Assembly: GCA_016700015.1 (NCBI GenBank)
Contig: CP064995.1
Span: forward strand, 960,001 to 992,000
Length of the DNA stretch: 32,000 nucleotides
Direction: 5' to 3'
Source: Candidatus Saccharimonadota bacterium
GTDB taxonomy: Bacteria > Patescibacteriota > Saccharimonadia > Saccharimonadales > Saccharimonadaceae
Shown here: piece by piece, positions 1 to 23,890 of the stretch
Position numbering within the stretch: the first letter of the stretch is position 1
Layout: every line of letters starts with the position of its first letter
The notes under the pieces: generated by a model
The model's input: only the letters and a program-made list of their open reading frames with translations
The model's database searches: none
What the model was told of the DNA's origin: nothing
Position numbers and translations under genes: made by a program

Positions 1-161
1 GCTACAGGCGCGCCACGAGCTTTGTCGCGCTCATTCATTTCGCGTAAGATGTTGCGCGACTCGATAATCGCTTTGTTGGCGCGCCATTTTTCGATAAGAC
101 TGACAAGGTAAAGGAACGTAATGATAATGGAGATAATTGTCAGTGCAATCAGGTAAGGCAT
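1..161 (-). CDS. hypothetical small membrane protein, N-terminal part only (gene runs off the left edge)
   Basis: ATG at 159-161 (minus) opens a frame with no stop down to position 1: MPYLIALTIISIIITFLYLVSLIEKWRANKAIIESRNILREMNERDKARGAPV. The first ~21 residues form a hydrophobic helix. It is absent from the ORF track because no stop lies in the window. No clear SD. Confidence 0.3.
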   Translation of the reverse strand, partial: MPYLIALTIISIIITFLYLVSLIEKWRANKAIIESRNILREMNERDKARGAPV

Positions 162-2516: not shown

Positions 2517-3194
2517 TTATTGCAAGGCGGCGATATAAGCCACCCACTGGTCATTACTCAGTTTGGTCGAAGATTTAATAAGGAGTAGTGTCTTGTCGAT
2601 AAAAAAGAGCAGTGATTGCGGCCCCTTTGAAGATGTCCCAACATAGACGGTGCGATTGTTGACAGTGATATGTTCGTTGGCGCCATAGTTTTGCGCCAGC
2701 TCTTTTAACTGATCTTCGGGGTCGTCTTTGAATGAGTCAGGCATAGCCTGCTGGCTGACGATGAGTTGAATCGCACCGATTGTATCGGTGTAAGCGTAGA
2801 CTGGGTTGCTAGACGACGGACTGACGCGCGTCCAGCCCCCCAGTTGTTCGATCGTTTTGCCTTTGGGAAGGTAGGTTGTATAGCTGGGTGTTCCCTTTTC
2901 GAGTGGCGAGCCATTGCTTATGCTGTGTGTCTGGTTTGAGTGCGGTGGCGAAGTTGAGGGCAAGGCTGGCCGGTTTAGTTGTGCAATTGCAAACCACGCC
3001 ACAGCTATACAGACAAGTCCGATAACAATGCGGCGATGGTGCCGCACCCAGGCGGCAACCACTCGCAGTCTTGAGATGAGATTGCGTCGTGGCGTTTGGT
3101 ACAGTTGCTTTTTGACCGGCCTATGCGGTTGCGATCCATACGAGGGCATGGATGGTTCTTTGGGGCTGATTCTTCGGGGTGTAAAGTCTATCAT
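2517..3194 (-). CDS. hypothetical single-pass membrane protein, translationally coupled to the 2174-aa giant
   Basis: The ATG at 3194 is preceded by TAAGGAACC, so the giant's stop codon overlaps an AAGGAA SD (6-nt gap). Pro/Arg-rich N-terminus, TM IVIGLVCIAVAWFAIAQL, ~140-aa ectodomain. Confidence 0.6.
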   Translation of the reverse strand: MIDFTPRRISPKEPSMPSYGSQPHRPVKKQLYQTPRRNLISRLRVVAAWVRHHRRIVIGLVCIAVAWFAIAQLNRPALPSTSPPHSNQTHSISNGSPLEKGTPSYTTYLPKGKTIEQLGGWTRVSPSSSNPVYAYTDTIGAIQLIVSQQAMPDSFKDDPEDQLKELAQNYGANEHITVNNRTVYVGTSSKGPQSLLFFIDKTLLLIKSSTKLSNDQWVAYIAALQ

Positions 3195-3200
3195 GGTTCC

Positions 3201-6200
3201 TTAGTTTTTATAATAAGGTGTATCAACGGGCATTTGGAGGCCGCCAGTAAAAGTGCGCCCGTGCATGAGGCGTTTGCTTGGGTCGGCGGTAAACTGGAGT
3301 GTCAAGTCGGTGATGGTCGGGCCGCGGCTGACGTCATCGGGGTAGCCAAAGGCCTGCGAACTGTCAACAGTCACGTTAAAGAAGAAATACCGTCCGCATT
3401 TGATGTCGGTGCCGCTACCATCTTTCACCACGTACGACCCGGGCGTCCCAAGTGTGACGTTACCGAAGTTTGTTTCTTGGCCCCACGTACTCATAGTCGC
3501 GCAGCGGTTAGCGGCAGTAATGTTTTGGTTGGCCATACTGCGGTATTTGAGTTGCCAGCGAGCGCCGATAGAGTTGTCGACACCATTTAACAGCCAGGCA
3601 TTGGGGAAGACATCTGAGTCGGTATCGATCATGATGGAGTACTTTGCGACTTGAGGCTGAGATAGCAGAGCGGTCTGCTGGACAGTGTTGGCTGAAGCGG
3701 GGTAGCTCACGGTTGTGCCGCATCCGCCGCCGAGCACATAGAGTTTGCCGTCGCTATAGGCAGCGGCAGCACCGTAGCGGTTTCCGGTGAAGCGCTGGTT
3801 GGTTGTCGACCACTCGCCGACGCCGGTCGGGTTGTTGCCGCTGGCAATGGTCGTGTTGGCACTAACTGGTGCGAGGAGTGTGCTGGGCGCGCACGTCGTG
3901 GCACTATCGCGTCCGCCGATTAGGTAAATATATCCATTTGCCGCGACGGCATCAGCTTGCGACAATGATTTCGGCAGGCTGGTGGTATAGGTCCAGCTGC
4001 CAGTGATAAGGCCGGCATTTGCCGGGATACTACTTCCGCTGTCGATTTGAGCATATTGGACATCGCTCAAGTAATTGGTGCCATCGAAGCCGCCAAATAC
4101 GTATAAGTTGTTGGCGTAGGCGACCACGGCAGCTCCGCTCCGAGCAACGTTGATACTGGTACTAGCCGTCGACCAGGCGCCGGTGATGTCACCACCATTG
4201 TTGAGTTGGGGACTGACATAGACGGTCGCGGTATCAGTGTAATTGCCATATCCGATCACGACCGTGCCATCTGTGCCATTGGTGCCGGTAGCTGTAGTCG
4301 TGCCGGTACCGCCAACACCGGCGTTTCCTCTCGTTGCATCAGTGCTATTACCTGGAGTTGTGCCACTAGCAACCGTTTGGGTCGTGCCAATACTTGAGCC
4401 ACCACCGCCACCACCGCTACCACGGTTGGTACCAGACGCAGCACTACCACCGCCACCACCACCAAAGGCACCGCCACCACCACCGCCACCACCGACACAT
4501 ATCACCGCGCTACCTCCACTACCGCCCGCGCCAGTGCCGCCGTTGCCGCCACGAGTAGTAACGGCAGTTGGACAGGTTGCCGCTGAGCCGCCCGCATCGC
4601 CACCAAGATTTGCCGCACCTGAATTACCAGCTGTACCTGTTGTACCTGCTGCTCCGCCGGTACCGCCAGTGGTGAAGCCACCACCACCGAAGCCACCACC
4701 GCCAGTGCCACCGCCAGCCGTTCCGTTGCCGGCTGTCGCCGACGCGCCACCACCTGGACCACCATTACCACCCGCTGCTGTGCCAAAGGCGCCACCGCCC
4801 CCACCCCCACCACCTGCTTGCAGTAAATATGTCGTGCTGCGTAGGAGTGCCGAAAAGCCCCCACCCCCACCACCATTACCGGTTGCTTTGCCAGCCGTTC
4901 CGACGTTGACAGTGAGTGTTTCACCAGAAGTGACGGTAATCGTTGATTGGCTAAAGCCACCCCCACCACCATTACCGCCCGCGCCAGTGCTACCACTTCC
5001 GCCACCCCCGCCACCCCCAGCTCCCCATGCCTTCACGGTCAATGAAGAAACACTGGTCGGTACTGTGTAGCTGGCAGTTCCAGCGGTATTATAAATTACT
5101 TGGTTAGCTGTGCCAGTATTACCAGCGACGACATAGAGACGATTATTCCAGACCGCTGCCCCAAATTGTGTGCGCGAGGCGGGTAGACTAATAGTAGTGG
5201 TCGACCAACTAGGTATACTGCCTGTCGATGGAGTGGCGTAGTAGATGGTCGATTGACTGGCACCGTTGGTGTCTTGGCCCCCTACATAGTAAAGTGAACC
5301 ACCGGCAACAAGTAGCTTGCCCCATGCACGTGCACTAGGTAGAGAAGCTGTACTAGTCCAGCTACCAATGTTGCCATAGGCGTCGAGCTGCGCATACGAC
5401 ACATCTGCGGTTGGTGATGTGCAGTCAGACGTACCCGTACACCCCCCAGCGGCGTATAGGTAACCATTTGCAACCACGCTACTCACCCCTAGGCGATTAG
5501 GACTGGTAGCGTAGGTGTTGGCGGCGTTGGTGTAGCCAGCGGGTGTGCCGCTATCGTTGTTGTATATCTGAAAAGTTTGGATGACGTCGGTACGGGTTGT
5601 GCAGCCGCCTGGGCTAGCACCGGCTGTACAGCCGCCGATAACGTAGGCGTAGGAGTTGGAGATTGGTACGGTCAGTCCCCAGCGCTGGTTGATTTCGACG
5701 GCCGAGACAACCCAGCCACTCACGAGCGCGCCGGTACTGACGTCAATTTTGATAAATTCGATATCGGCGAGGACACCGATCACGGCTTCGTACCCGCCGA
5801 CAGCGTAGAGGTAGCCGTTGTAACCGAACGCCGCTGAGCGGCGGCGGCCGACTGCCATTTGGTAGGGTGATTCGGTCCAGCCGCCGGCTCCGGCAGTGAC
5901 GATATTGTTGTTGCTATCGATTTTGGCATAGCGGACGGTTTTGAGGTCGACAAGATTTGGTGAAACGCCGCCAATGAGGTAGATATAATTTGCATAGACA
6001 GTTCCGCTCATAATACCAAGGCCGGCAGCAGTGTCGCCTGGCAAAATGCCAATCTGCTGCTGACCAGTAGTTGTGCAGCTGGCGATTGTACCGGCGGCCT
6101 GGATGTTACATTTATAGACATTTTGGCTGTAGGCAGTACATCCCGCACTCGAACTTGAGCTGCACCCCCCGAGGATATAGAGATTACCGGGATTGTTGGT

Positions 6201-9200
6201 TGCATCGGCTGGATTTGCGCGGGCGAATGAATACAAGTACGAAACGCTATTAACTCCAAGACCTGTCAGTGTTTGGGTTGACCAGGTACCGAGGCTGCCG
6301 TCCGCTTGGTTGATGTCGGCACGTAGCAAGTCATTGGTATTGGCACTGCCGTCGAGTCCGCCGACAATGTAGATGCGTCCATTGAAGACAACAGGACTGC
6401 CAGCGGCAATATTGGTGGGAGTCGTGTTGGTAGTGTCAACGCACCACATGCCACCTTGAATTGTCCGTGGTGCCGGGCACGTGGTGGGTTTGCTCATCGT
6501 GCCGGTAGAGGAAATCGCAGCATAAGCGGTTGTGTTGAGGGTTGTGCTACACGTGTTGTTGGTGCAGCCGCCAATAAGATAAAGATACCCGTTTGAGATA
6601 AACGATACTGTGAGCATATTGCCGATGTAAGTGGTACCCGGTAGATTACACCTGCTTGGTGATCCGCCGCTACACGGCGCTGTACCGTTCGCAACTGACG
6701 CGCCAACTGTGCTCGCATCACCATCTTGATTGATCGTGCCGTATGAAACGGCATTGGTCGGTGTTGTGCAGGCACCGGTCGTAGTATTTTGCGTCGTACA
6801 GCCGCCGACATGGTAAATAATATTACGCCAAGCCAAAAGACTTTGACCCGTGCGCTGGTCGCTGAGGGTACCGATGGCATTCCAGGTATCGATGCTTCCA
6901 TCGGCGTTGATACTTGCAACATCTGAGTCGGACAGGATGCTTGTACAGTATCCGCTGGCGTTGACAGTGCCACAGCCTCCCGAGGTGTACAAGTAGGCTC
7001 CCCAAACTGTGGTGAAAGTACCGCCATTGCTCATTCTGCCGCTACCCATGCTCGTCGTTTGAACCCAACTATTGAGCGTGCCGGTGCTATTGATCTTGTT
7101 GAAATAGACGGTGCTGAGCGGCGCACCGCCGACCGAACTAGCGCCGCCAACGATGTAGAGGCGGTCGTTGTAGACAAAGGAGCCGTGATTGTAAAGGTTG
7201 TAGGGGAGTGTCGCCGAAGTGCTCCACGAGCCAAGTCGGCCAGTCGGCTGGATGTCGGCGATTTCAACCGTATTTACCACGGTGGTGCCGGTGGTGCGGC
7301 CGCCAATGATATACATACGGTTATTGTAGGCGATAGCGGTGAGTCCAGATCGGACGGTACTAAGACCGGTGTCGGTATACCAGTAGCTCCACGTTGTTTT
7401 GTTTGGATCGGTTGCTGGGTCCCAAGTTGGGTTCCAGAGTTGGGGCTCGCCGCTGGCACCAAGTTTTGCAATGTAGATGGTACTTTGTGGAGAGCCGGCG
7501 TTGTTGAAACCGCCGACGACATATAAGAAGCCGTTGTAAGCCACCATGCTGAAATTAGTTCGCGCTTGTGGCAAATTGTAGGCCGCGTCGGTACACCAAC
7601 CGCTACAGCTACCATTACCGGGATTAGGGCTCACGAGGGTGCCATCGGTTGTGCTGAGCTGCATCCAGTTGACAGCGGCCGTTGGCGTCGTGCCGCCCGC
7701 GCCATAGTTAATCACGACGATACCGTTACTACCGCCAGTACCGGTACTACCAGTTGCTCCTGCGTTACCACCCTGACCAGCACCGGCGCGGTCGGCATCG
7801 GCTGAATTGCCCGGTGTCGCACCGCTCCCCGCGTTAAGCGTGAGGCCTGTGCCATAGCTTGAGCCACCACCTCCACCACCGGCACCAGAGCCGCTTGATG
7901 AGCTTGAGCCACCACCTCCACCGAAGTAACCCGCTCCACCACCACCTCCACCAGCACGACTGGTCGCGATAGCTCCACCACCGTTACCACCACTAGCAAG
8001 ACCACCGCTTGCGCCACTTCCGTCGGTTGTGCCGCTGGTGCGGCCATCACCACCAAGACCACCAGTTAGTGAGCTACCTGCCGAACCGGCATTTGTCCCA
8101 CCGGTACCACCTGCGCCGCCAGCTGATTGGGTGCCAGCACCACCGCCACCACCAGCACCAGATGTTGAACCAGCAACACCAGTTGTACCGCCACCAGCCC
8201 CACCAGCCCCACCGGTGTTACCGGCGGAGTTACGGCCACCACCACCACCTCCACCACCGGCAGCGATTGCCAGCGCTGTTGTGCCTCGGTAAATGCTTGA
8301 ATACGCCCCACCTCCACCTCCACCACCGGCAGTGTTGCGAGTACCGGCTGAACCACCACCACCAACATAGACAGTTAAGGTTTCTCCGGGGGTAACACTG
8401 ATCGTGCCAGTTGCTTCACCAGCCCCGCCACCCGTACCACCGGCAGCAGCTGAGCCGCCAGCCCCACCTCCACCACCACCACCCCATAGTTTGACAGTGA
8501 GCGAGGTGACGCCACTTGGCACTGTAAAGCTACTTGCTCCCTGTGTCGTATAGACTTGGCCGTTTTGCGAAATACCACCGGCTGAATAGAGGTAGCCACC
8601 GGCGATAGCGGTACCGCCTGCCCAGTTGGACTGCGATAATTGCGTCGTCGCATTCCAGCTATTGAAGCGGGCGCCAGTAGTCGGACTCTTACGGATCAGC
8701 TTGTCGGCCACGTCAAAGTCGATGTTGGTTTCGTTGTTACCATTCATAAATTGCTGGGCGGTGACAATGTAAATGCTTGGGTCGATGGAAAGCGGGAAAT
8801 TGGCTTTTGCGAGGCCCGTCGCTCGAACGGTCAGCGTGGTTTTGTTGAGTTCAAACTCGGCTTTTACGACCGAAATTTGTCGACCTGATTCGATAACTAT
8901 TGGTTTGGGGATGACAAAGAGCAGCAGGTTTTTTGCGGCATTTGCACGAGCTTTTTCGAGGAGCGACGCATCGGCATCGGTCGCGGCCGTGATATTGTTC
9001 ATAAAAACTTGGTTACCATAGATACCAATACTCCCATCAGCTTCTTTACGAGCTTCGGTACCGCTAGGTAGCGTGAGCTTATACGATAACTGGTAGCTAT
9101 CGCCAGTTGCGTGTGTCAAGACGATATCCTCTTTGACGCCGGTGCCGCTGGCGGTGTAGATCAGCCAACCGCTATGGTCACGGAATGGATACACCACGCG

Positions 9201-9725
9201 ATTTTTACCTTGTTTACCAGCAGCGACGGATGCGTGCGGCGACATCGTAAGATCGACTTTGTAGTTTGGGTCAGTGACCGTCAGGCCCTTGCTGGCGTCA
9301 ACAGGCAGCCGCGCAGCGACAAGCGTCGCACCAGTTTGTTTTGATTGGCTCGTGTTGGCACTGCCATGGGCAAAGGTATAGACTTGTTGCTCGTTGTCGA
9401 ATGTTAAGTCTTTAGCCAATATATCGCTGGGGGTGCCCAGCAACTTGTCAACTGAGCTTACACGATAATCATGAGGGCCAAAGTAACGATAGAGTTGGGA
9501 GCCGATGATCACTGCCGCCGCCAAAACGACTACGGCGATAGCGGCACGCAGGAGGCCGCGGCGAGTCGGCACGGGTATGACGAAATACCGCCTACCCCCT
9601 TGTGTCGATTTAATCCAGCGTCGCTGCAACAAACGAACACGGTCAACAAGCGCCTGCCACCAGTTGCCGCGCGAATATGCTTCATGTTTGGTTCGTATTT
9701 TTCTCTTCATACTCTCTACTGCCAC
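3201..9725 (-). CDS. giant (about 2170 aa) membrane-anchored surface protein: N-terminal anchor, ~18 Kelch-like blades, two glycine-rich (ALK/LTK GRD-like) domains, unique C-terminal domain
   Basis: Uninterrupted 6.5-kb frame. Signal-anchor LLRAAIAVVVLAAAVIIGSQLY. Eighteen Kelch-type xxxxLYxxGG strands (YNGFLYVVGG, YNNRMYIIGG, YNDRLYIVGG, FNGRIYIVGG, YANNLYVFGG and others). Two Gly-rich modules. The track start at 9725 is GTG; the ATG at 9710 (MKRKIRTK...) is an equally plausible start. Confidence 0.9.
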   Translation of the reverse strand: MAVESMKRKIRTKHEAYSRGNWWQALVDRVRLLQRRWIKSTQGGRRYFVIPVPTRRGLLRAAIAVVVLAAAVIIGSQLYRYFGPHDYRVSSVDKLLGTPSDILAKDLTFDNEQQVYTFAHGSANTSQSKQTGATLVAARLPVDASKGLTVTDPNYKVDLTMSPHASVAAGKQGKNRVVYPFRDHSGWLIYTASGTGVKEDIVLTHATGDSYQLSYKLTLPSGTEARKEADGSIGIYGNQVFMNNITAATDADASLLEKARANAAKNLLLFVIPKPIVIESGRQISVVKAEFELNKTTLTVRATGLAKANFPLSIDPSIYIVTAQQFMNGNNETNIDFDVADKLIRKSPTTGARFNSWNATTQLSQSNWAGGTAIAGGYLYSAGGISQNGQVYTTQGASSFTVPSGVTSLTVKLWGGGGGGGAGGSAAAGGTGGGAGEATGTISVTPGETLTVYVGGGGSAGTRNTAGGGGGGGAYSSIYRGTTALAIAAGGGGGGGGRNSAGNTGGAGGAGGGTTGVAGSTSGAGGGGGAGTQSAGGAGGTGGTNAGSAGSSLTGGLGGDGRTSGTTDGSGASGGLASGGNGGGAIATSRAGGGGGGAGYFGGGGGSSSSSGSGAGGGGGGSSYGTGLTLNAGSGATPGNSADADRAGAGQGGNAGATGSTGTGGSNGIVVINYGAGGTTPTAAVNWMQLSTTDGTLVSPNPGNGSCSGWCTDAAYNLPQARTNFSMVAYNGFLYVVGGFNNAGSPQSTIYIAKLGASGEPQLWNPTWDPATDPNKTTWSYWYTDTGLSTVRSGLTAIAYNNRMYIIGGRTTGTTVVNTVEIADIQPTGRLGSWSTSATLPYNLYNHGSFVYNDRLYIVGGASSVGGAPLSTVYFNKINSTGTLNSWVQTTSMGSGRMSNGGTFTTVWGAYLYTSGGCGTVNASGYCTSILSDSDVASINADGSIDTWNAIGTLSDQRTGQSLLAWRNIIYHVGGCTTQNTTTGACTTPTNAVSYGTINQDGDASTVGASVANGTAPCSGGSPSRCNLPGTTYIGNMLTVSFISNGYLYLIGGCTNNTCSTTLNTTAYAAISSTGTMSKPTTCPAPRTIQGGMWCVDTTNTTPTNIAAGSPVVFNGRIYIVGGLDGSANTNDLLRADINQADGSLGTWSTQTLTGLGVNSVSYLYSFARANPADATNNPGNLYILGGCSSSSSAGCTAYSQNVYKCNIQAAGTIASCTTTGQQQIGILPGDTAAGLGIMSGTVYANYIYLIGGVSPNLVDLKTVRYAKIDSNNNIVTAGAGGWTESPYQMAVGRRRSAAFGYNGYLYAVGGYEAVIGVLADIEFIKIDVSTGALVSGWVVSAVEINQRWGLTVPISNSYAYVIGGCTAGASPGGCTTRTDVIQTFQIYNNDSGTPAGYTNAANTYATSPNRLGVSSVVANGYLYAAGGCTGTSDCTSPTADVSYAQLDAYGNIGSWTSTASLPSARAWGKLLVAGGSLYYVGGQDTNGASQSTIYYATPSTGSIPSWSTTTISLPASRTQFGAAVWNNRLYVVAGNTGTANQVIYNTAGTASYTVPTSVSSLTVKAWGAGGGGGGGSGSTGAGGNGGGGGFSQSTITVTSGETLTVNVGTAGKATGNGGGGGGFSALLRSTTYLLQAGGGGGGGGAFGTAAGGNGGPGGGASATAGNGTAGGGTGGGGFGGGGFTTGGTGGAAGTTGTAGNSGAANLGGDAGGSAATCPTAVTTRGGNGGTGAGGSGGSAVICVGGGGGGGGAFGGGGGGSAASGTNRGSGGGGGGSSIGTTQTVASGTTPGNSTDATRGNAGVGGTGTTTATGTNGTDGTVVIGYGNYTDTATVYVSPQLNNGGDITGAWSTASTSINVARSGAAVVAYANNLYVFGGFDGTNYLSDVQYAQIDSGSSIPANAGLITGSWTYTTSLPKSLSQADAVAANGYIYLIGGRDSATTCAPSTLLAPVSANTTIASGNNPTGVGEWSTTNQRFTGNRYGAAAAYSDGKLYVLGGGCGTTVSYPASANTVQQTALLSQPQVAKYSIMIDTDSDVFPNAWLLNGVDNSIGARWQLKYRSMANQNITAANRCATMSTWGQETNFGNVTLGTPGSYVVKDGSGTDIKCGRYFFFNVTVDSSQAFGYPDDVSRGPTITDLTLQFTADPSKRLMHGRTFTGGLQMPVDTPYYKN
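4240..5105 (-). repeat. glycine-rich domain copy 2 (approx. residues 1541-1829 of the giant)
   Basis: YNTAGTASYTVPTSVSSLTVKAWGAGGGGGGGSG...SGETLTVNVGTAGKATGNGGGGGGFSALLR...LLQAGGGGGGGG...GTNGTDGTVVIGYG. Same module order as copy 1. The plus strand is C-rich (CCACCACCGCC runs). Confidence 0.7.
5106..7699 (-). repeat. array of ~14 Kelch-like beta-propeller blades between the two glycine-rich domains
   Basis: There are 14 recurrences of the [YWFSA]xxx[LIM]Y[ILVHTA][IVS][GA]G strand at roughly 50-65-aa spacing, many blades with Cys pairs. This would be enough for two 7-bladed propellers (inference). Confidence 0.6.
7700..8570 (-). repeat. glycine-rich domain copy 1 (approx. residues 388-676 of the giant)
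   Basis: VYTTQGASSFTVPSGVTSLTVKLWGGGGGGGAGG...TPGETLTVYVGGGGSAGTRNTAGGGGGGGAYSSIYRGTTALAIAAGGGGGGGG...GSNGIVVINYG. This is the pattern of bacterial glycine-rich domain proteins related to the ALK/LTK GRD. Confidence 0.7.
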
Positions 9726-9752: not shown

Positions 9753-9769
9753 TAACCGAGATGGGGCTA

Positions 9770-12700
9770 CTACTTGTTACTGAAGGCAAAGTTGAGGTTA
9801 CCGACGTAGGCATTGGCGTTTTTGCTGGTAGTCATGTCGATCTTGAAGACGATACTGTTGCCAGGCGCAAAGCCACAGGTCGATGGGTCGGCGGCACCGG
9901 TTGCGTTCCCGATTTGCCACGAAGTCTGTGTGCCGGTCGATACGCTGATGGTTGACCCGCAGGCGGTAAGGCCTGTGCCGCTGTTGCGGTAGATCTGGTA
10001 TTGCACCGTCGCCGAACCACCATTGCTGCCGTTGTCGGTACGGCCCATGAGCGATGTCTGACCTGAGTTGAATTCTTTGAAGGTACTTGGTAACTGGTAA
10101 GTAACGTAGATTGCATAGGTCTGTGCGGTCGCCTGCGGGCTGGTCCATTTGTAGAAGTTGTAGGTCTCGTTGGTACCGCAAATGGTTGGTTGTGCAGGGC
10201 TGCCGCTGCCGTCGTTGATGTTGAGGTAGTCCGAGCAGAGGTCGCTCGTCATGGTGCCGATACCGGTGCCGTGTAGCACTGCGTTGGTATACTCTGGGCT
10301 GATAGTGACAATGTTGTCCGGGCTCGAACCACAAGCACCCCAGCCGTCTGCCTCGTAACACTGCAGCTTGCCGAGCGTTGTGTCGTAGTACATGCTCCCG
10401 AGCAAAGCGTCGTTGTTGCTGGCGATGGGCGCACTGGCGCCTTTGTCGAGTGTGAAGAGTGTGGTTGGGCCACCATTGATACCACCGCCGACCTGAACAT
10501 TTGGTGTCGTGATGCTGGCGAGCGTCATACTGAAAGAGTCAACAGCGAAGGTGCGTACGCCCGAAGCGGCCTCGACGAAGTAGACATAGGGGTTAGTTGC
10601 GGTATTGGCGTCAGTCTGGATGTAACAGGTGACCTTTGTCCAGGCAGTGGTGACGAGCGTCTGTGTATTGTAGTCAACACAATCGACGTAGTCGCCAGCG
10701 GTAGTTGAAGTGCTGCCAAGATAGCTATAGCGGACCTTAAAATCGGTAAATGCGGCGCCAGAGATGAGTTTGCCATAAACGGTGACGCGGTAGAGTGTCG
10801 AGCTCAGTGGGTTCGACGACAGTTTGTTGCGGATGCCGGCGTTGGCAGCACCAGTGGTGACGGCAGCTTGTGCACTGTCGCTAGCGTCGTTGCCATCACT
10901 TGTGATGCGGGAGCTCGTCACGGTACCCTGGCCAGAGTTGGGCCAGTTGGTAGCGTAATTGCCTGAGTCATTCACGCTACCATCGGTCGCAAAGTTATAG
11001 TCAGCGGCAATAGTGACACTGAGATTGTCAACGTAGAAGCTACGTGTCGCACTGGCAGTTTGGCGAATGAGGATCGCGTTGCCGCTGGTGATACCACTAG
11101 CGGGCGTCGTGAAGGTGCAGTTGACCTTGGTCCAGATACTTGTGTTGACAGCTGAGGTGGCACCACAAGCAGTGAGGAGGGTAGTGTTGCCATCAGCCGA
11201 ATATTGCACGTTGAGGTCTGTAAACGTACTTGAACCGCTGGTGAGACGAGTAGTGAAGCTGACGTTGTAGGTAGTGTTGGCTGTCAAGGCGGCGGCGCTA
11301 CCACTGCTATTGATGAGTTGGTTTTTGGCACCACTGTTAGCGGCGGTTGCGGCAATCGATACAGAACCTTGACCAGTGGCGATATAGCTACCGGCGACAT
11401 TTTGGCGGGTGACCGTGGCAGTACCGGTGCTACTCCAAGTGCTGGCCGGGAAGGTTGTGGCACTGGCACCAGCAGTCTCTGCACCGGCATTGCTGGCATA
11501 TTCAGTGACATTGCTGTTGACCTGGAGCAAGCCTGCCGCGCTTTTTGTCTGGACGCTGAGGAGCGTACCATTCACAGGGTTGGTAGAGCTATCACGAATG
11601 GTCAGACCATTGGTCGCACTGGTTTTACTGACGACGAGTTCGGCGCCACCGGCGCTCTGGAGTGTGTTGTCGTAGGCAGCCTGGAGGGTAGTCGAGCTCG
11701 ATGCACCCGCAGCCGTCCAATCAGCGCCATTCCAGATCATCGTTGCGGTTGTATTCTTACGCATTGCAATCTGATTGCCTTGGCCGCCACCATTGACACT
11801 CAGTGTAAAGTCCTTTGTGAGATTTGATGCAGTCACGTAAACGACGCGTCCAGCAGTTGCAATACTTGGATCTGGGAGGGTTGCTGTTTGTCCATCCTGG
11901 GTAAACCCGACGATGACAGAAGCATAGTTGTTGACGGATGTCTGAGCGACAGTACATCCAGATGATGAGGTTGATTCAGTGCCACTTGGGAAACAGTTGG
12001 CATCATTGGCGATCGTCTGGAAGGCTGACGTATTGAGTATAACAAGACCGTTTGATGTGGTACCGGTTCCACCGGCCAGAGTGAGGTTGCCGCCAGTCGT
12101 ACCAGTTGCGCTATTACCACCCTGGATGAGCACTGCACCACCCACTCCAGTTGTACCACTGGTAGCACCCTGGATGGTGAGCTGCTGCCCAGCTTGGCCG
12201 GCAGTGGTTTGTGTAGTTTTTTGGATAGTGGTTGTGGTGGTGGCATTACCAACCATTATCTTGTCCGAAACAAGCTTAATACCATTGGTTGCACCGGCAG
12301 TCAGTGTGACGGTGTTAGCAGCGCTCCCGGCATTTCCTATATTGACATCACCATTGACGGTTGTTTGGAGGTTAACCGCACCTCGCACCCCTGAACCTGT
12401 TGGTGCGCCACCGATAATGTTAACCGCACCACCGGCTTGGTTAGTGCCGTTACCACCACCACCTTGTAACGTTAGGGAGCGTCCCGCTCCTGTGCTCGTG
12501 TTTGTATTGACCCCGATGATCCGATCAGTTCCACCGCCGAAACTGAGGTCATATGATGCGGTTTCGCCGTTTGCTAAGGCTATACCGACACGGTTATTTG
12601 TCGTATCAGCAAGCAGGACACTCGCTTGAGCGGCATTTTGAACACTAAATGCGCTCGTCGAATCGATGCTATTACGAAGGGTCAACCGTCCGGTGTTAGT

Positions 12701-14614
12701 GAGTTGGAGTAAAGAAGTGGTGGCTCCATACGAATCGTAGGTAGATGAGGTTTGCACTGTTGCGTAAAAAGCTGGCAAATCATTTGTAGGTGTTCCTGAT
12801 GCATTACCTGGCCAGCTAGAGGGGAGCGGGCCCCACGTTTGTCCGCTGTTGGTCCATGTAGCAACGTTTGTTCCACCACCAGTTGTCGTCCTAAAACAGT
12901 TTTGGTTAGTGGCGGTACCATTAGTGAAATAAACGATCCAGTAACTTGTACCACTTGTCACTGCTGTTGGGCTGACACTTACAGCGTTCCAACCGTTTAC
13001 AAGTGTTGTTGCACTACTCTGAGTAAGCAGGGTACCGGGTGTACCAGCATTATTAGTGAAAAGACCCATTCGGAACTGGTTGTTGGGTGACGCACTGATC
13101 GGACAAGTCATATAAACGGATAAGCTGATAACATTTCCGTTTACACCAGAACTGTACAGACCGGCTTCGAGTCGGCCGTTGTCGTCGTTGTCAGTTGCTG
13201 TTCCAGTCGTAGTATTACCAAATACACTCGTGCTGCTTGCAGCAAGGCCCGAGTTGATCTTGAAGGTTGAGTTATCACTCGCGTCAGCTCCTAGATACCA
13301 CGATTCGGAAGGCGTCTTAATTTGCAAGGTTGCATCACCTGTTCCTTTTTGCTCGATGAGGGTTTGAGGGTTTGATGTGACGCTATTGTTGACGGCGACT
13401 TGGAGTGTCGTCGTTGGTGCTCCCCCGGTTGCACCGACACCAACTCGGCTATTTGTAGTATCTACAGTGACGACATCCGACGTGCCGGCGGCATTTTGGA
13501 CTTTTAGAGCGGTAGCACTGTCCGTAAGTGGGCGAATAGCCGGTGCGTACACGGCACCACCAAAGTAGCCGTTGCGCCAAGTGTAGGTGCTTGAACCAAT
13601 GTCGATAGTATTCGCATAGGCCGTTCCTGGGGTGAGGCTGGCATTGATAGCGACGCCAGTGAGATTGTCTAGTTGGCGGGTTGCACCAGCCGATCCGCAG
13701 TTGGCGGCGGTTTGAAGACAAATTGTGTCGGTGGCAGCAGTTGAATCTGGCAAGATAATGGTTCGATTGGCAGTCAATACACTAGTTTGAAGCGTTAGGC
13801 TGTAGCCATCGGTTGTGCCATCGCTCAACACAAGCTTACCTTGGGTTACCGTGCCGCTGGTGGCAATGCGGCCGAGGGTGAGCTGGTTGCCGGTATTGTT
13901 GAAAGCAGCATTGATGTTTCCGGCACTGTCTTGCAGTCTGAACATATCGACTGTTTGGGCCGAGGCGCCTTGAACAACCGCGCCCACACTACTAGCACTG
14001 GCGCTCTGCACTGCGATATTAGCAGTCTGTACAGTTGTCGTATTCTGAATAAACCCACTAGCGTCACGACCACCAAGCATGGTGGCGTTCATCGCGTAGG
14101 CAACTGAAGAGAGGCGTTTCATAGGGAGCATTTCGTCATCAGGCGAACAGCTTGTGAAGGGCGTACATGTCGTGTTGGTATTGCCGATATTCATACTCAG
14201 CCACAAGGTGTCGGAGTTCCAGTCCACTTGAGTACCAAACGGATTGATAGACCCCAGCTGCACGGACATATAGCCATTGACAACTAAAACGCCCTGGCTC
14301 GAAGTATTAAGCCAGCTTTCAGTCCATTTCAAAGTACCACCAGGGTTACCGGCAGCAGTGCCGGTGCCGTCTTGATAGATCTTGAACTGGACGTTGTAGT
14401 AGCCGTCGGGCACAACAGCACCCTGGGCGTTCAACAGACGTCCTTGGAAATTCATTTGTTGGTTGGTGGCCGCGTGCGCAGCTGGTGCAGCAAAAATGCC
14501 AACACCAAATACGCCCAGTAGAAGGGCGCCTACAAATAGTATGCGCGTTAGCACACCAGCCAAGCTGATTGTGGTGTTTGTGTTAATGGTGGGTCCGGCT
14601 CCGATATTCGCCAA
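9770..14614 (-). CDS. giant (about 1600 aa) secreted adhesin-like surface protein with two CBM4/9-like modules
   Basis: Uninterrupted 4.8-kb frame. Signal peptide ...LTRILFVGALLLGVFGVGIFAAPAAHA/ATNQQ. Thr/Ser/Gly/Asn-rich beta-type sequence. Two jelly-roll-like modules end in SFYVDNLSVT (approx. 11010-11480) and TFAVDSFSMT (approx. 10520-10990). Ends with a double stop, TAGTAG. The track start at 14614 is TTG; GTG at 14554 (MLTRILFVG...) would give a textbook signal peptide. Confidence 0.85.
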   Translation of the reverse strand: MANIGAGPTINTNTTISLAGVLTRILFVGALLLGVFGVGIFAAPAAHAATNQQMNFQGRLLNAQGAVVPDGYYNVQFKIYQDGTGTAAGNPGGTLKWTESWLNTSSQGVLVVNGYMSVQLGSINPFGTQVDWNSDTLWLSMNIGNTNTTCTPFTSCSPDDEMLPMKRLSSVAYAMNATMLGGRDASGFIQNTTTVQTANIAVQSASASSVGAVVQGASAQTVDMFRLQDSAGNINAAFNNTGNQLTLGRIATSGTVTQGKLVLSDGTTDGYSLTLQTSVLTANRTIILPDSTAATDTICLQTAANCGSAGATRQLDNLTGVAINASLTPGTAYANTIDIGSSTYTWRNGYFGGAVYAPAIRPLTDSATALKVQNAAGTSDVVTVDTTNSRVGVGATGGAPTTTLQVAVNNSVTSNPQTLIEQKGTGDATLQIKTPSESWYLGADASDNSTFKINSGLAASSTSVFGNTTTGTATDNDDNGRLEAGLYSSGVNGNVISLSVYMTCPISASPNNQFRMGLFTNNAGTPGTLLTQSSATTLVNGWNAVSVSPTAVTSGTSYWIVYFTNGTATNQNCFRTTTGGGTNVATWTNSGQTWGPLPSSWPGNASGTPTNDLPAFYATVQTSSTYDSYGATTSLLQLTNTGRLTLRNSIDSTSAFSVQNAAQASVLLADTTNNRVGIALANGETASYDLSFGGGTDRIIGVNTNTSTGAGRSLTLQGGGGNGTNQAGGAVNIIGGAPTGSGVRGAVNLQTTVNGDVNIGNAGSAANTVTLTAGATNGIKLVSDKIMVGNATTTTTIQKTTQTTAGQAGQQLTIQGATSGTTGVGGAVLIQGGNSATGTTGGNLTLAGGTGTTSNGLVILNTSAFQTIANDANCFPSGTESTSSSGCTVAQTSVNNYASVIVGFTQDGQTATLPDPSIATAGRVVYVTASNLTKDFTLSVNGGGQGNQIAMRKNTTATMIWNGADWTAAGASSSTTLQAAYDNTLQSAGGAELVVSKTSATNGLTIRDSSTNPVNGTLLSVQTKSAAGLLQVNSNVTEYASNAGAETAGASATTFPASTWSSTGTATVTRQNVAGSYIATGQGSVSIAATAANSGAKNQLINSSGSAAALTANTTYNVSFTTRLTSGSSTFTDLNVQYSADGNTTLLTACGATSAVNTSIWTKVNCTFTTPASGITSGNAILIRQTASATRSFYVDNLSVTIAADYNFATDGSVNDSGNYATNWPNSGQGTVTSSRITSDGNDASDSAQAAVTTGAANAGIRNKLSSNPLSSTLYRVTVYGKLISGAAFTDFKVRYSYLGSTSTTAGDYVDCVDYNTQTLVTTAWTKVTCYIQTDANTATNPYVYFVEAASGVRTFAVDSFSMTLASITTPNVQVGGGINGGPTTLFTLDKGASAPIASNNDALLGSMYYDTTLGKLQCYEADGWGACGSSPDNIVTISPEYTNAVLHGTGIGTMTSDLCSDYLNINDGSGSPAQPTICGTNETYNFYKWTSPQATAQTYAIYVTYQLPSTFKEFNSGQTSLMGRTDNGSNGGSATVQYQIYRNSGTGLTACGSTISVSTGTQTSWQIGNATGAADPSTCGFAPGNSIVFKIDMTTSKNANAYVGNLNFAFSNK

Positions 14615-14851: not shown

Positions 14852-15811
14852 CTAGGCTGCCAACAAGAGGCCGCGCTTTTCGAGTAGACGCTTTTCGCGC
14901 CACTCACCAATCCAAAAACTTACTACCACGGCGAAGGTAGCAGCAAATAGCGGCCATAGTACCAGTAGCACATTAGTCGTTTCTTTGGTGGTAGCTGCTA
15001 CTGCGGCGTCAGGGTCGGGCTGGCCATTAACAATACTAGCTACGGTGATGAAGGCAACACGCCCGTCAGCATCGGTTGCCTGGACCGATAGTTGGTAGGT
15101 GCCGGCTTTCTGGTAAGTGTGGGCAGTGCGGAAGCTGGTGTTGTCGGGCCGCGATACTACTTTATTTGTGCTGTCGCCCCACTGAATGTTGATGGCATAT
15201 GGTGCGCGGCCACCGATGATGTCGAGCGGAATTGTCATTTCTTTACCTGGGAAAGTACCACGGAATACCGCATCGGTGTTGAGGAGTAGTTGTGGGCCGC
15301 CGAAATTGAGCTGAGCAAATGGGCTGCCAGTACCTGTGGGCGCGTCGAAATAAACCACCACACTACCCGAGTCCGGGCCGACTTGGTTGAGGGCATCAAA
15401 CACCTTTGCAACTAGTGTATTTTGGCCAATGAGTAGATCGATCTCAAAACTAAACGTTCCGTCGCTGGAGCACACTGCCGAACCGGCAAAGATATCATTT
15501 TTAAATAACTCAACAAGCGTGTCTTTAGGACAGGTTCCCGAAACGACCACAGGGGTTTGGCTAAAACGCTGGCCGCTGGTTGGTGTTTTGATTACTGCGG
15601 CAGTGGTTGGTGGCTTGCCGGGTACGGTGCCATACATACCTATCGATCCAGCGGCCGGACCTGGCCGCTCCCAAGCGGTTGCCGTGTAGGTAGTGAGGCA
15701 TACACCGACCACAAATAGTAATAGTGCCAGCGGTACATATGAGGTATGTTCGTGTGGTCGTACTTTTGCTGTGTGTTTGTGATGCGTCAGCTTCAATAGC
15801 TTCCTAAGCAT
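14852..15811 (-). CDS. membrane protein anchored at both ends with Ig-like and PKD-like ectodomains
   Basis: His-rich N-terminus MLRKLLKLTHHKHTAKVRPHEHTSY followed by the TM VPLALLLFVVGVCLTTY. Ig-like segment PVVVSGTCPKDTLVELFKNDIFAGSAVCSSDGTFSFEIDL. PKD-like segment YAINIQWGDST...HTYQKAGTYQLSVQATDADGR. C-terminal TM VLLVLWPLFAATFAVVVSFWIGEW plus a basic tail. Confidence 0.8.
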   Translation of the reverse strand: MLRKLLKLTHHKHTAKVRPHEHTSYVPLALLLFVVGVCLTTYTATAWERPGPAAGSIGMYGTVPGKPPTTAAVIKTPTSGQRFSQTPVVVSGTCPKDTLVELFKNDIFAGSAVCSSDGTFSFEIDLLIGQNTLVAKVFDALNQVGPDSGSVVVYFDAPTGTGSPFAQLNFGGPQLLLNTDAVFRGTFPGKEMTIPLDIIGGRAPYAINIQWGDSTNKVVSRPDNTSFRTAHTYQKAGTYQLSVQATDADGRVAFITVASIVNGQPDPDAAVAATTKETTNVLLVLWPLFAATFAVVVSFWIGEWREKRLLEKRGLLLAA

Positions 15812-15839: not shown

Positions 15840-16838
15840 CTAGCGACGGCGGGAGCGGCGAGAGCGGCCAAGCAGGCGTTCGTTGTAGCGCAGGATAGCC
15901 GCACGAATTGCGATGATAGCGACGGTGAGCAGGAACAGTATCAGAAGGATAAGTCGCCAAGGAATAACCCAAAATGAGAGAGTTTGAGTTGTAGTAAGCT
16001 TATCGCCGTAGTTGAGCTTCAGCTCAGCAGTGTATCGTCCGAACAGGAAGCCGGTTCCTAGTGCAGCTTTGTCGAGTGGCTGAGTGAATTTGCGAACACT
16101 CTTGGGCAAAATATTACGCGCTTCGCTATTGACATTGATATTAACGACTGGTTTGCCAAACATATCTTTGACGAGTATGGTGCCGACAGGTTGTTCATAC
16201 ACATTGCCTTCATTATTGACACGCTCAACAAAATTAAACGGTATCTCTTCGAAAAATGTCGATTTTTTATCGTCTTTTTCCATATAAAATTCAGCAATCG
16301 TTAGTTTTTCAGTTGCCGCACCTTTGACGCGAATCAAAATCAGCGCTCCGAGACTCGGTGCGAGCGACACGCTACTGGTGGTGCCTGCTGGTGCACTTGC
16401 AGTGAAACGCACCACACCGTAGTAGCCGCCCGGTGCAGCATTCGCTGGTACTTTTATTTCGAGCGGAAGTTTTTCGAGCTGCTTAGGCTTTAGGGTAAGG
16501 TTTGGAAACTTGCTTACCCACGGTATAAGACTATAGGGGCTGGGCTCAGCATCGTCGGTAATCACTCGTGGATTACCGCTTTCGTCGCCACTTGCAGTAA
16601 AGTCATTAATCTCACTCGTGACGAACAGCGCTGAATTTGACACATCGCGGATTGCAATCTCCGATTTGATGGTTTCGCCCGGATCAACAACAAAGTTGAG
16701 TACGGGTGGTGCGATTTCAAGCGCTAGCCCTTGTTGATTGTTGGCTGGCGGGTCAACTGCACTTACCAGTGCGGTTGTAAAAAGCGTGACCGTGAAGCCT
16801 GCAATCAATGTGGTGATAATGGATAAGCTATATTTCAT
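15840..16838 (-). CDS. DUF916/DUF3324-like cell-surface protein (CscA/DufA-like): signal peptide, two beta-sandwich-like halves, C-terminal TM anchor
   Basis: Signal peptide MKYSLSIITTLIAGFTVTLFTTALVSA. The N-terminal half (LEIAPPVLNFVVDPGETIKSEIAIRDVSNSALFV...LTLKPKQLEKLPLEIKVPANAAPGGYYGVVRFTA) fits the DUF916 pattern as I remember it. The C-terminal half (KLTIAEFY...VNNEGNVYEQPVGTILVKD...ILPKSVRKF...GRYTAELKLNYGD) fits the DUF3324 pattern. TM WRLILLILFLLTVAIIAI plus RSRRSRRR tail. Start is 6 nt after the preceding gene's stop. Confidence 0.55.
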   Translation of the reverse strand: MKYSLSIITTLIAGFTVTLFTTALVSAVDPPANNQQGLALEIAPPVLNFVVDPGETIKSEIAIRDVSNSALFVTSEINDFTASGDESGNPRVITDDAEPSPYSLIPWVSKFPNLTLKPKQLEKLPLEIKVPANAAPGGYYGVVRFTASAPAGTTSSVSLAPSLGALILIRVKGAATEKLTIAEFYMEKDDKKSTFFEEIPFNFVERVNNEGNVYEQPVGTILVKDMFGKPVVNINVNSEARNILPKSVRKFTQPLDKAALGTGFLFGRYTAELKLNYGDKLTTTQTLSFWVIPWRLILLILFLLTVAIIAIRAAILRYNERLLGRSRRSRRR

Positions 16839-16844: not shown

Positions 16845-18002
16845 CTAATAGGTCGGAGTACAAATGTACGTTAAGGTGGTGCTATACGTACCTGCGGTCA
16901 GGTTACCGGCTACATTGGCGATGTATGAGATAGTGTATAACTGACCATTGGTCGGGCCGGTGCCGCCATTGTCACTGCCAGCTATTACATCACCGGTCGA
17001 AAACTTGAAGTTATTCACGACATTGTAGTCAGATGCCGGCTGGCCGCGTAGGTCTGTACCATTTGGCGCGGGGTTGATATCTGCACTCGAGCCTGGAAAA
17101 CTACTAATTCCGGTGGGACCGCCAGTGTTTGTGTTGGCGCGAAGGTTGAGACCGAACTGGTTAGAACCCTTAGACCCAGCCACTGGAGCATCGGCCGCTC
17201 CCGGCGCCATAGCGGTGATTGTACTGGTACCCGATGTAAGGGTTGGTCCATTGACTGTGATAACATATCCTGAAAAGGCATTGGTACTGGCGGCCATTTG
17301 TGACTTTGCGATTGCGGTATCTTGGGGGGAGAAGAGTTGGTTAAATTCGATGACACCAGTTGTAGCGGTTGTGCAGTCAGGTACTGAACCATTCATCGAT
17401 ATTGTGCCGCCGGTACAGAAGATGAGACTTTCGGGCATAACACCACTAAGCTGGATCGCTGTAGCGGTACTGGCTGCAACCGAACCGGTGTCGATGGCCG
17501 TACCGGTGCCGTCCAGGCTACTAAATGTGCTGATGCGGACGAAGAAGGTGTAGTTGGTCGTTGTCGGGTTCTTGATGTTGTTGAGCTGGATGACTAAGGC
17601 ACCGCCTGCTGGGTTGGACGCGGCAGCACGTTTGACGATGACACTATTGACAGTTGATGCATGCACAGACCAGCCCGTGACAGCGGAGCCCGTATCCGTA
17701 ACTCCAGTGACGATGGACGCATCCATACCAGTCGGGGCGGTGCAGGCGACTTTGGAAGCAACAGTACAATATTCAAAGAGCACTGAACCGAGTGCGGTGC
17801 CAAGGGTAGGTATGGTAAACGTCAGCTTGTGGTTGACATTGCCGCCAGGCAAAGAGCCACCGACATTACCAACACCGATCAATGTTAATGATCGAGACGT
17901 AATCTGGTCTGCACTGGCTAGTCCCGACTGCAAAGTGACAGTGACGCCCGCCGCAACCAGCAACACACTTAAAACGTATGCAACTCCCCTCACACTTTTC
18001 AT
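16845..18002 (-). CDS. secreted two-domain surface protein, large paralog A (WxL-like C-terminal domain)
   Basis: The ATG at 18002 gives the signal peptide MKSVRGVAYVLSVLLVAAGVTVTLQSGLASA/DQ. It is clearly paralogous to 18107-19333 (shared blocks FFVRISTxxSLDxTGxAIDxGxVAAST, LSGVMPESLxFCTG, ASTNAxSGYxITVNGPTLTSG, QFGLNL, YSTTLTYICTPT[YF]). The track start at 18038 is a TTG that coincides with a -35-like hexamer. Confidence 0.8.
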   Translation of the reverse strand: MKSVRGVAYVLSVLLVAAGVTVTLQSGLASADQITSRSLTLIGVGNVGGSLPGGNVNHKLTFTIPTLGTALGSVLFEYCTVASKVACTAPTGMDASIVTGVTDTGSAVTGWSVHASTVNSVIVKRAAASNPAGGALVIQLNNIKNPTTTNYTFFVRISTFSSLDGTGTAIDTGSVAASTATAIQLSGVMPESLIFCTGGTISMNGSVPDCTTATTGVIEFNQLFSPQDTAIAKSQMAASTNAFSGYVITVNGPTLTSGTSTITAMAPGAADAPVAGSKGSNQFGLNLRANTNTGGPTGISSFPGSSADINPAPNGTDLRGQPASDYNVVNNFKFSTGDVIAGSDNGGTGPTNGQLYTISYIANVAGNLTAGTYSTTLTYICTPTY

Positions 18003-18008
18003 GTCCGC

Positions 18009-18038
18009 AGTGTACCATAAGCAAGACAGCTTGGTCAA
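18009..18038 (-). promoter_or_regulatory. promoter in leaderless geometry for paralog A
   Basis: The minus strand has TTGACC (18033-18038)-18 nt (ending TGG)-TACACT (18009-14), then 6 nt (GCGGAC), then ATG at 18002. No SD. Confidence 0.45.
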
Positions 18039-19333: not shown

Positions 19334-19371
19334 GGTGGATTTTTGTTTTTTTGTTAAGGTTTCTACCAGAG

Positions 19372-19400
19372 ATATTACCATGAGCGTTGTAGTGTGTCAA
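19372..19400 (-). promoter_or_regulatory. near-consensus sigma70 promoter for paralog B
   Basis: The minus strand has TTGACA (19395-19400)-17 nt ending TGG-TAATAT (19372-19377). A leader of about 40 nt follows, A-rich (AACAAAAAAACAAAAATCCACC), before the ATG. Confidence 0.5.
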
Positions 19401-20199: not shown

Positions 20200-20217
20200 A
20201 CCTGGGTCCATGCCGTT

Positions 20218-20269: not shown

Positions 20270-20300
20270 ATGAATTGGATACAAAACAAGAGAAACAGAC

Positions 20301-21334: not shown

Positions 21335-23886
<2,552 letters not shown>

Positions 23887-23890
<4 letters not shown>

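Follow-up and report, generated by a model that had tools for sequence, protein, structure and literature searches.

The stretch analysed here (the window) comprises 32,000 nucleotides of a Candidatus Saccharimonadota genome (contig CP064995.1, positions 960,001 to 992,000). Our subject is the gene at 3201..9725 on its minus strand, whose giant product combines Kelch blades with glycine-rich domains (GRDs) and is referred to below as the GRD-Kelch protein. The gene is a single uninterrupted open reading frame (ORF) of 2174 codons counted from a GTG. The real start is probably the ATG at 9710, five codons inside the GTG, as a GAGAG motif lies just upstream of it and P0001, a 98% identical homologue from an independent dataset, is compatible with the same start; the product would then have 2169 amino acids (aa). 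The gene is real, and a homologue search with its protein found 460 relatives, 120 of which were listed. The original prediction, made from the nucleotide letters and their ORFs, had described a 2174-aa ORF with two GRDs and about 18 Kelch blades, and this architecture was recovered as 18 blade motifs and two GRDs of ~300 aa. The parts of the gene are as follows.

9489..9725, minus strand: basic cytoplasmic N-terminus (aa 1-56) and single transmembrane anchor (aa 57-79), from hydropathy and charge count
8631..9470, minus strand: N-terminal ectodomain, aa 86-365, without a Pfam family but conserved among homologues
8562..8630, minus strand: first strands of Kelch blade 1 (…AGGYLYSAGG), abutting GRD1, at a position equivalent to the strand that hosts GRD2
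7686..8561, minus strand: GRD1, aa 389-680, inserted in blade 1 (Pfam PF21722, AlphaFold2, Foldseek)
5118..7628, minus strand: Kelch blades 2 to 15 (of blade 15, the first half), aa 700-1536 (Pfam, motifs, AlphaFold2, Foldseek)
4230..5108, minus strand: GRD2, aa 1540-1832, of the 'mid' paralogue class, in the blade 15 loop (alignment with single-GRD orthologues)
4149..5503, minus strand: mosaic cassette of GRD2 and flanking blade segments (no DNA similarity to locus L004)
3690..4229, minus strand: second half of blade 15 and blades 16-18, aa 1833-2012 (alignment, AlphaFold2, motifs)
3288..3683, minus strand: C-terminal beta-rich domain, aa 2015-2146, the best-conserved domain of the family, without a Pfam family
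3204..3287, minus strand: C-terminal tail, aa 2147-2174 (…DPSKRLMHGRTFTGGLQ.P.DTPYY), nearly invariant and modelled as disordered

The sole hydrophobic segment of the protein lies at aa 57-79 (Kyte-Doolittle value 2.48 at aa 57) and is preceded by 14 Lys/Arg residues against three Asp/Glu. This charge distribution points to an N-in/C-out, type II anchor that leaves most of the protein outside, in agreement with the N-terminal signal-anchor and surface display proposed in the original prediction. The protein has 26 cysteines between aa 707 and 2110, mostly in close pairs (i to i+4..12) located in the loop just past the GG of many blades, which suggests disulphide-stapled extracellular loops. 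Two of the cysteines, C1718 and C1743, are conserved in the middle of the 'mid'-class GRD2. The positive-inside anchor and the closely paired cysteines together argue for an extracellular location.

The blade motif [LIVMAY][YF]xx[GA]G was found in exactly 18 copies, one before GRD1, 14 between the GRDs and three after GRD2, so that the 14 and three blades previously counted after the two GRD copies agree with the motifs, with one more blade ahead of GRD1. Motifs are spaced 52-78 aa apart save for gaps of 355 and 344 aa, which hold the GRDs. Three Pfam Kelch families scored above threshold: PF24681 (131 bits, cut-off 50; 5e-38), Kelch_1 (115 bits, cut-off 20.1; 9e-34) and Kelch_6 (57.4 bits, cut-off 25.3; 1e-15), and a full-length family profile searched against PDB sequences retrieved Kelch proteins only. 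An AlphaFold2 (AF2) model of aa 1000-2174 had a mean predicted local distance difference test score (pLDDT) of 79.3 and a predicted TM-score (pTM) of 0.75, with most blades at 80-98 and confident structure on both sides of GRD2; block means for the blades at aa 1010-1290 were about 84-98, mostly above 90. When this model was searched with Foldseek, six-bladed Kelch domains were matched with E-values of 1e-11 to 1e-14 (for KLHDC10, target TM-score [TMt] 0.65, root-mean-square deviation [rmsd] 3.9). The Kelch-like strands thus do model as propellers, and the simplest partition of 18 blades would be three six-bladed propellers (3 x 6). The array resembles the six-bladed propellers of Keap1, KLHL12, KLHDC10 and NanM in its Pfam, profile and fold matches; unlike them, it places 18 blades in one chain, carries whole domains in blade loops and has neither BTB/BACK domains nor an enzyme context.

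Glycine-rich segments, defined as 40-aa windows with at least 40% Gly, span aa 395-653 and 1549-1795. Aligned with one another, the two GRDs show a common preamble, a PGETLTV motif and a G.NG..V(I/V).YG ending, the same order that had been read from the sequence originally. BLASTP gave 56% identity over the first 96 aa (E 6e-11), and the alignment extended over the full length (110 bits) with the composition filter off. GRD1 passes the gathering threshold (24.3 bits) of the Pfam family Gly_rich_2 (PF21722) with 25.6 and 28.1 bits, covering positions 1-219 of the 226 in the model. Of 20 GRDs sampled from the family, 19 matched nearly the full model (best E 8e-10). The homology of GRD2 rests on its full-length alignment with GRD1 and on PF21722 matches in orthologous 'mid' GRDs. 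In addition, aa 199-575 matched phrog_863 of PHROGs, in the category 'tail', with an E-value of 6e-15. No match to PF12810 was obtained at E<=10 for this protein or at E<=1 for the sampled GRDs, and neither phmmer nor a GRD-only profile retrieved ALK/LTK chains from the PDB; against PDB sequences the GRD-only hidden Markov model gave spurious Gly-linker matches and a marginal match to the Pam3 fibre (E~1, profile positions 6-149).

For GRD1, an AF2 model of aa 385-692 that drew on 90 family sequences had a mean pLDDT of 93.4, a pTM of 0.90 and nine beta-strands. Its long glycine stretches were modelled at pLDDT of at least 91 without DSSP helix or strand, an appearance that polyglycine-II helices would also have. 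Disorder combined with the lack of a profile match had been named as evidence against the original prediction, and GRD1 is instead confidently folded in the model and passes PF21722. A Foldseek search of the PDB returned 25 matches at E<=0.011, every one an ALK/LTK GRD/TG structure or a phage fibre or tail-tip protein, and all later matches had E>0.8. They comprised the tail tip of mycobacteriophage Bxb1 (9d93, chains Qa/Qb; E 9e-7, TMt 0.52), twenty ALK/LTK chains (E 8e-6 to 4e-3, probability 1.0) and the cyanophage Pam3 fibre (7ypx, E 3e-3, and 7yfw). Among predicted viral structures in BFVD, the same model had 206 matches at E<=1e-3 (TM up to 0.65, rmsd ~4-5 Å), including tail fibres, virion proteins and 'glycine-rich domain-containing proteins'. 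By these models the GRDs are folded domains of an ALK/LTK-like fold whose sequence family is the bacterial and phage Gly_rich_2, and the closest relatives with solved structures are fibre and tail-tip proteins of phages, a point that the original prediction had missed. Its assignment of the GRDs to an ALK/LTK type therefore holds for the fold (20 of the 25 Foldseek matches) but not for sequence or profile.

Among the ALK/LTK structures, human entries (7NX1, 7LRZ, 7N00, 7NWZ) aligned with the GRD1 model over about 340-380 columns and the invertebrate ALK 7LIR over only ~125. Both sides appear to share a beta-sandwich mixed with long glycine runs that lack DSSP structure, the GRD-Kelch side of this comparison being a model. 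The GRD-Kelch protein differs in having no detectable sequence or profile similarity to ALK/LTK and no kinase, MAM, LDLa or EGF domains in Pfam. To our knowledge, bacteria have no ALKAL-type ligand. Bundles of polyproline-II/polyglycine-II (PPII/PGII) helices have been reported in the Pam3 fibre, in Bxb1 gp33 (the 'tail wing brush') and part of gp29, in S16 gp38 and in ALK/LTK (PMC13243192). The Bxb1 tail tip (9D93) and Pam3 fibre (7YPX/7YFW) were the best PDB fold matches (E 9e-7, TMt 0.52 and 0.46), and in phage fibres the domain occupies the distal, host-facing part of an attachment organelle; the GRD-Kelch protein, however, is cellular, membrane-anchored and about ten times larger, with GRDs inserted in a propeller where the phage domain ends a trimeric fibre. 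The gp38 adhesin of Salmonella phage S16 (6F45) is a PGII sandwich with conserved glycine-rich motifs and hypervariable loops. It resembles the GRDs in principle only, in that a conserved glycine frame surrounds variable intervening residues (see the entropies below), and 6F45 was not among the Foldseek matches of GRD1. With Gly_rich_2 at large the GRDs share the nearly full-length model matches of GRD1 and the sampled family members, and viral proteins annotated as glycine-rich domain-containing occur among the BFVD matches of GRD1; a difference is that the domain is here nested in Kelch blades.

The position of the GRDs within the blades became apparent from orthologues with a single GRD, which align through the GRD2 site as '…WNNRLYxV', a loop of ~15 aa (GGAGSGTGCTASNVC) and then 'STIYVSPQL..G.I..W'. 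The latter is the remainder of the same Kelch blade, and in the GRD-Kelch protein ~300 aa are inserted at this point. The equivalent site for GRD1, in blade 1, lies between 'AGGYLYSAGG' and 'AVNWMQLST', and a third class of orthologues (P0009, P0010 and others) carries its second GRD in the same loop of the last blade, after 'DGKAYVMGG'. Each GRD is therefore nested in a single Kelch blade, in the loop that the YxxGG strand leads into; in the protein at this locus these are blades 1 and 15. In Kelch structures such as Keap1, the B-C loop lies on the ligand-binding face.

Occupancy of these slots varied among relatives. Among the 120 listed of the 460 homologues, 28 had GRD1 plus a blade-15 GRD, 14 had GRD1 plus a last-blade GRD and the remainder had one GRD, while 55 full-length copies from GTDB species genomes comprised 43 with one GRD, five of the blade-15 type, two of the last-blade type and five with no GRD. 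In three of the five copies without a GRD (L071, L073, L077), slot 1 holds an unrelated, conserved, non-glycine domain of ~230 aa with no Pfam match. This alternative domain lies at aa ~401-660 of L071, ~411-676 of L073 and ~422-675 of L077 and contains '…PAGDLYIA.M…ASYTW…'.

Identities on non-glycine columns averaged 47% between GRD1 copies and 54% between 'mid' copies, against 31% between GRD1 and 'mid' and 34% between the two within one protein. No DNA-level repeat was found between the two GRDs, whose duplication the original prediction had suggested dating by a self-dotplot. Both results indicate that GRD2 is a member of an old class of paralogues sitting in a slot. A recent intragenic duplication was rejected, as GRD2 is no closer to its own GRD1 (34%) than to those of other proteins (31%) and no DNA repeat is present.

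Conservation across the family was assessed as mean column entropy. The cytoplasmic and transmembrane segment was the most variable part (2.87 bits), followed by the N-terminal domain (1.46 bits), GRD1 overall (1.20 bits), the Kelch blades (~1.0 bits), the C-terminal domain (0.69 bits) and the C-terminal tail (0.30 bits). Within GRD1, glycine columns had 0.57 bits and non-glycine columns 1.67 bits; a fixed glycine frame with the most variable positions of the ectodomain would fit a display scaffold, as judged from the alignment. That the C-terminal domain and tail hardly vary suggests a conserved partner. The tail has the lowest entropy of the family yet an AF2 pLDDT below 50, and it may be a docking or sorting peptide.

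Comparison with related genomes indicated a mosaic gene. Relative to P0002, from a Ca. Saccharimonas aalborgensis metagenome-assembled genome, the protein is 94-100% identical at aa 1-1400 and 1900-2174 and 52-67% identical at aa 1400-1900. At the DNA level, window positions 5504-11764 and 3197-4148 are 93% and 91% identical, respectively, to locus L004, in which nothing aligns with the ~1.35-kb GRD2 cassette at 4149-5503. Outside the L004 block the protein identities of the neighbours fall to 45-68% (PamT 68, pilins 53-59, PamR 66, downstream genes 45-57). A second contig, L006, is 97.4% identical to window positions 3240-10409; similarity does not extend past the 3' end of the gene, beyond which the genes differ. 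The L004 and L006 comparisons thus show that the gene and the 3' half of the giant gene upstream of it are nearly unchanged among genomes that are otherwise far more divergent. This pattern suggests that the two giant genes were recently exchanged between lineages, or that assemblies are chimeric over a shared region.

The gene lies downstream of the genes for a Pam pilus of the candidate phyla radiation (CPR), a setting that the original prediction had not recognised: it is a conserved distal member of the Pam pilus operon. The neighbouring features are listed here.

19459..20340, minus strand: PamT (NCBIfam 267.4 bits, cut-off 240)
18107..19381, minus strand: Pam pilin (NCBIfam 134.2 bits, cut-off 55)
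16845..18038, minus strand: Pam pilin (NCBIfam 120.8 bits, cut-off 55)
15840..16838, minus strand: chaperone-like protein of 332 aa with a signal peptide and a C-terminal transmembrane helix (transmembrane pattern)
14852..15811, minus strand: PamR (NCBIfam 359.6 bits, cut-off 300)
9770..14614, minus strand: giant1, a secreted protein of 1614 aa, 44 nt upstream of the GRD-Kelch ORF (synteny)
2517..3194, minus strand: type II membrane protein of 225 aa, starting 6 nt past the GRD-Kelch stop codon (conserved synteny)
21588..25873, minus strand: F-type ATP synthase alpha, gamma, beta and delta genes, adjoining the pam genes (as in the neighbourhood described in 10.64898/2026.03.03.709456)
27792..28415, plus strand: TylF-type O-methyltransferase beyond the ATP synthase genes, with no apparent link to the GRD-Kelch gene
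29025..29681, plus strand: IrrE/Peptidase_M78 protein beyond the ATP synthase genes, with no apparent link to the GRD-Kelch gene

Window positions 14852-20340 on the minus strand represent the complete distal part of a CPR Pam pilus operon. The order PamT, pilins, a protein of ~332 aa, PamR, giant1, GRD-Kelch protein and a protein of ~200-230 aa is identical in loci L001-L005, with 237 nt between pamR and giant1 in the window. When GTDB species genomes were scanned for the C-terminal domain, it was found in 102 genomes, nearly all of them with Saccharibacteria, Saccharimonadia or Patescibacteria as their label and a few under generic or other names. As the neighbours are pilus, ATP synthase and housekeeping genes and the place of the gene on the chromosome is the same across these 102 genomes, the GRD-Kelch protein is not part of a virion or prophage. 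The C-terminal half of giant1 (aa ~875-1614) is 88% identical to its L004 relative and the N-terminal half has diverged; relatives of giant1 have 1061-1600 aa with NosD/beta-helix or CBM_4_9 signals. These comparisons suggest that giant1 is another mosaic surface protein, one whose gene is exchanged along with the GRD-Kelch gene. Searches of Pfam and NCBIfam gave no family for either the N- or the C-terminal domain, for the domain that replaces the GRD in slot 1, for giant1 or for the 225-aa neighbour.

The Pam pilus was described in a preprint on Ca. Mycosynbacter amalyticus, in which the chaperones PamC and PamD have a signal peptide and a C-terminal transmembrane segment (10.64898/2026.03.03.709456). 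The locus in the window corresponds to that operon in PamT, two pilins, a C-terminally anchored chaperone-like protein, PamR and the adjoining ATP synthase genes (10.64898/2026.03.03.709456). The same authors noted a 'tail fibre-like protein' as a consistent neighbour of the pam operon (Troman et al. 2026, 10.64898/2026.03.03.709456) and left it undescribed, the words Kelch, glycine and adhesin being absent from the text (10.64898/2026.03.03.709456). They also left open how contact with the host envelope is made (10.64898/2026.03.03.709456). From its co-location, the GRD-Kelch gene is probably co-expressed with the Pam pilus genes.

We consider the GRD-Kelch protein to be, with a probability of roughly 55%, a surface-anchored, tail-fibre-like, modular host-recognition adhesin linked to the Pam pilus. 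Under such a mechanism the N-terminal transmembrane helix would anchor the protein on the surface of the Saccharimonadia (Saccharibacteria/TM7) cell, and the ectodomain of ~2,100 aa would form a rigid scaffold of 18 Kelch blades flanked by the N-terminal domain and the conserved C-terminal domain and tail. Blades 1 and 15 carry the ~300-aa GRDs in the loop after the YxxGG strand, which would lie on the ligand-binding face as in the B-C loops of Keap1, with the conserved glycine framework of each GRD presenting variable non-glycine positions. Made together with the Pam pilus, the protein might recognise or hold the host cell surface during episymbiosis, the GRDs acting as they do at phage fibre tips and the propeller array displaying exchangeable binding modules. 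Recombination would swap modules and the whole gene between lineages and so tune the choice of host surface. The observed cassette-like variation and exchange are the pattern expected of a specificity determinant. With its gene at the end of the Pam pilus operon, the protein is a strong candidate for host recognition, and the ligand- or host-binding role that had been guessed at originally appears reasonable.

Several observations weigh against the adhesin interpretation. GRD2 scored below the PF21722 threshold (8.9 bits, E 1.8), so that the originally suggested profile check succeeded for the Kelch blades and GRD1 but not for GRD2. Confidence in the structure models was similarly divided, as GRD2 was confident at its ends (pLDDT 80-92 in the N-terminal half, 66-94 in the C-terminal part) but modelled poorly in the middle, at aa 1663-1751 (below 50). 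Foldseek TM-scores for GRD1 were modest (0.20-0.52 overall; 0.20-0.49 for the ALK/LTK chains) and rmsd values high. The five full-length orthologues without any GRD show that the GRD is not essential to the family. The best-conserved parts are the C-terminal domain and tail rather than the GRDs, which could mean that the protein's core function resides in these parts, perhaps by docking to components of the pilus or envelope. A scan of positions 1300-20800 gave 23 predicted promoters against 15.6±3.9 in shuffled sequence and 21 terminators against 20.5, nothing beyond chance, which lends no support to co-transcription with the pam genes. Finally, chimeric metagenome assemblies over near-identical regions could overstate the 'different backgrounds' of the exchanged genes and blur the ownership of flanks, although a chimeric assembly cannot itself create the shared near-identity.

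The main rival is a structural role in the Pam pilus exerted through the conserved C-terminus, with the GRDs as accessory decorations; enzyme, coat and duplicated-unit explanations are weaker. The protein would in this case be an assembly component such as an anchor, platform, usher-like or tip-associated factor, in which the C-terminal domain and tail would provide a docking site for pilins, for PamR or for the membrane chaperone. Such a component would fit the strict synteny of the gene with those for PamT, the pilins, the chaperone-like protein and PamR, as well as the C-terminus, which is the most conserved part of the protein and ends in a predicted disordered, docking-peptide-like tail; moreover, no dedicated trans-envelope assembly machinery for Pam pili was found in the preprint (10.64898/2026.03.03.709456). 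The assembly model given there nevertheless closes without a GRD-Kelch protein (10.64898/2026.03.03.709456), and NCBIfam returned no match to the GRD-Kelch protein at E<=1e-3, including the Pam pilin C-domain or a donor-strand module, which sets it apart from the pilins of the operon. The gap between pamR and giant1 also separates it from the pilus genes, and its size, modular cassettes and exchange between lineages resemble a specificity determinant more than machinery. We regard a pilus component as a minority explanation that nonetheless stands ahead of the other rivals.

It seems improbable that the protein resembles the Kelch enzymes NanM or galactose oxidase in binding sugars or being active on carbohydrates, with propellers that act on glycans of the host or of its own cell wall. 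Some homologues bear the JGI label 'N-acetylneuraminic acid mutarotase', and relatives show faint matches to PF24996 (NANM) along with the NosD/beta-helix or CBM_4_9 signals of their upstream giant. We discounted the label because the automatic name follows from Kelch repeats alone; the NANM matches are below threshold, the protein has 18 blades instead of one six-bladed enzyme, and Pfam and NCBIfam gave no catalytic domain.

Slightly less probable still is that the protein takes no part in host recognition and is a passive coat of the envelope, similar to an S-layer, or a decoy that diverts phages or predators. A large, anchored, disulphide-rich, repetitive and variable protein could serve in this way, and phage-like GRDs could mimic or compete with phage fibres, but nothing speaks for it specifically, and the conserved place in a pilus operon linked to host contact argues for host interaction. 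The tandem duplication of a [GRD + propeller] unit that the original prediction had favoured, with GRDs as beads alternating with propellers, would explain why the GRDs are homologous over their full length and why blades follow each, but we consider it very improbable given that single-GRD orthologues cross the GRD2 site with a ~15-aa loop, that each GRD interrupts a blade, with a strand ahead of it and the remainder behind it, that other orthologues use a different blade for the second GRD, and that the GRD classes are old paralogues with no DNA repeat.

Returning to the adhesin interpretation, a bolder form of it may be put forward tentatively. The Kelch array would be a display scaffold with slots, the loops after YxxGG in blades 1, 15 and 18, into which recombination swaps GRDs of two or three classes and one or more unrelated domains. 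It would then be the main host-range determinant of environmental Saccharibacteria, using the same PGII binding module as the tail tips of actinobacteriophages and cyanophages and traded between species like phage receptor-binding proteins. We think this version possible, though on balance doubtful.

Kelch repeats, Gly_rich_2, the ALK-like fold and the pam operon are each already known. In our literature searches, no paper described a GRD-Kelch protein, and we found no description of GRD nesting in Kelch blades, of slot-and-cassette variation, of exchange between lineages or of the identity of the 'tail fibre-like' gene of the pam operon. Host recognition by ultrasmall episymbiotic CPR bacteria is still largely unexplained, and the GRD-Kelch family provides a concrete candidate: a surface-anchored giant, encoded in a pilus operon, with a predicted phage-fibre-tip fold.

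The glycine codons of the GRDs (4230-5108 and 7686-8561) are mostly GGT (50-61%) and rarely GGG, whereas the rest of the gene is dominated by GGC. Phase variation through poly-G tracts was considered and rejected: GGT and GGC make up most of the glycine codons, GGG is scarce and no homopolymer is longer than 6 nt, so that the poly-Gly runs are not slippage-prone.

A census with the GRD profile yielded 18,404 representative clusters at E<=1e-3 and 259 at 1e-30. The GRD-Kelch family widens what is known of the ALK/LTK glycine-rich fold, which is a very common prokaryotic and viral extracellular module (~18,000 representative clusters) and tolerates nesting in another repeat fold. A survey of GRD and Kelch fusions had been suggested with the original prediction and was carried out here: Kelch blades occurred in only 13 of the best 150 GRD representatives (P0121-P0270). 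Elsewhere the partner domains were fn3, LamG, DUF2341, Ig and T9SS, in Omnitrophota, Dojkabacteria, Falkowbacteria and Bacteroidota; these partners are extracellular modules, in line with an extracellular role. The top GRD proteins without Kelch blades, whose sources include Cyclobacteriaceae, were giant and secreted, reaching 7,203 aa, and some had up to 15 matched stretches.

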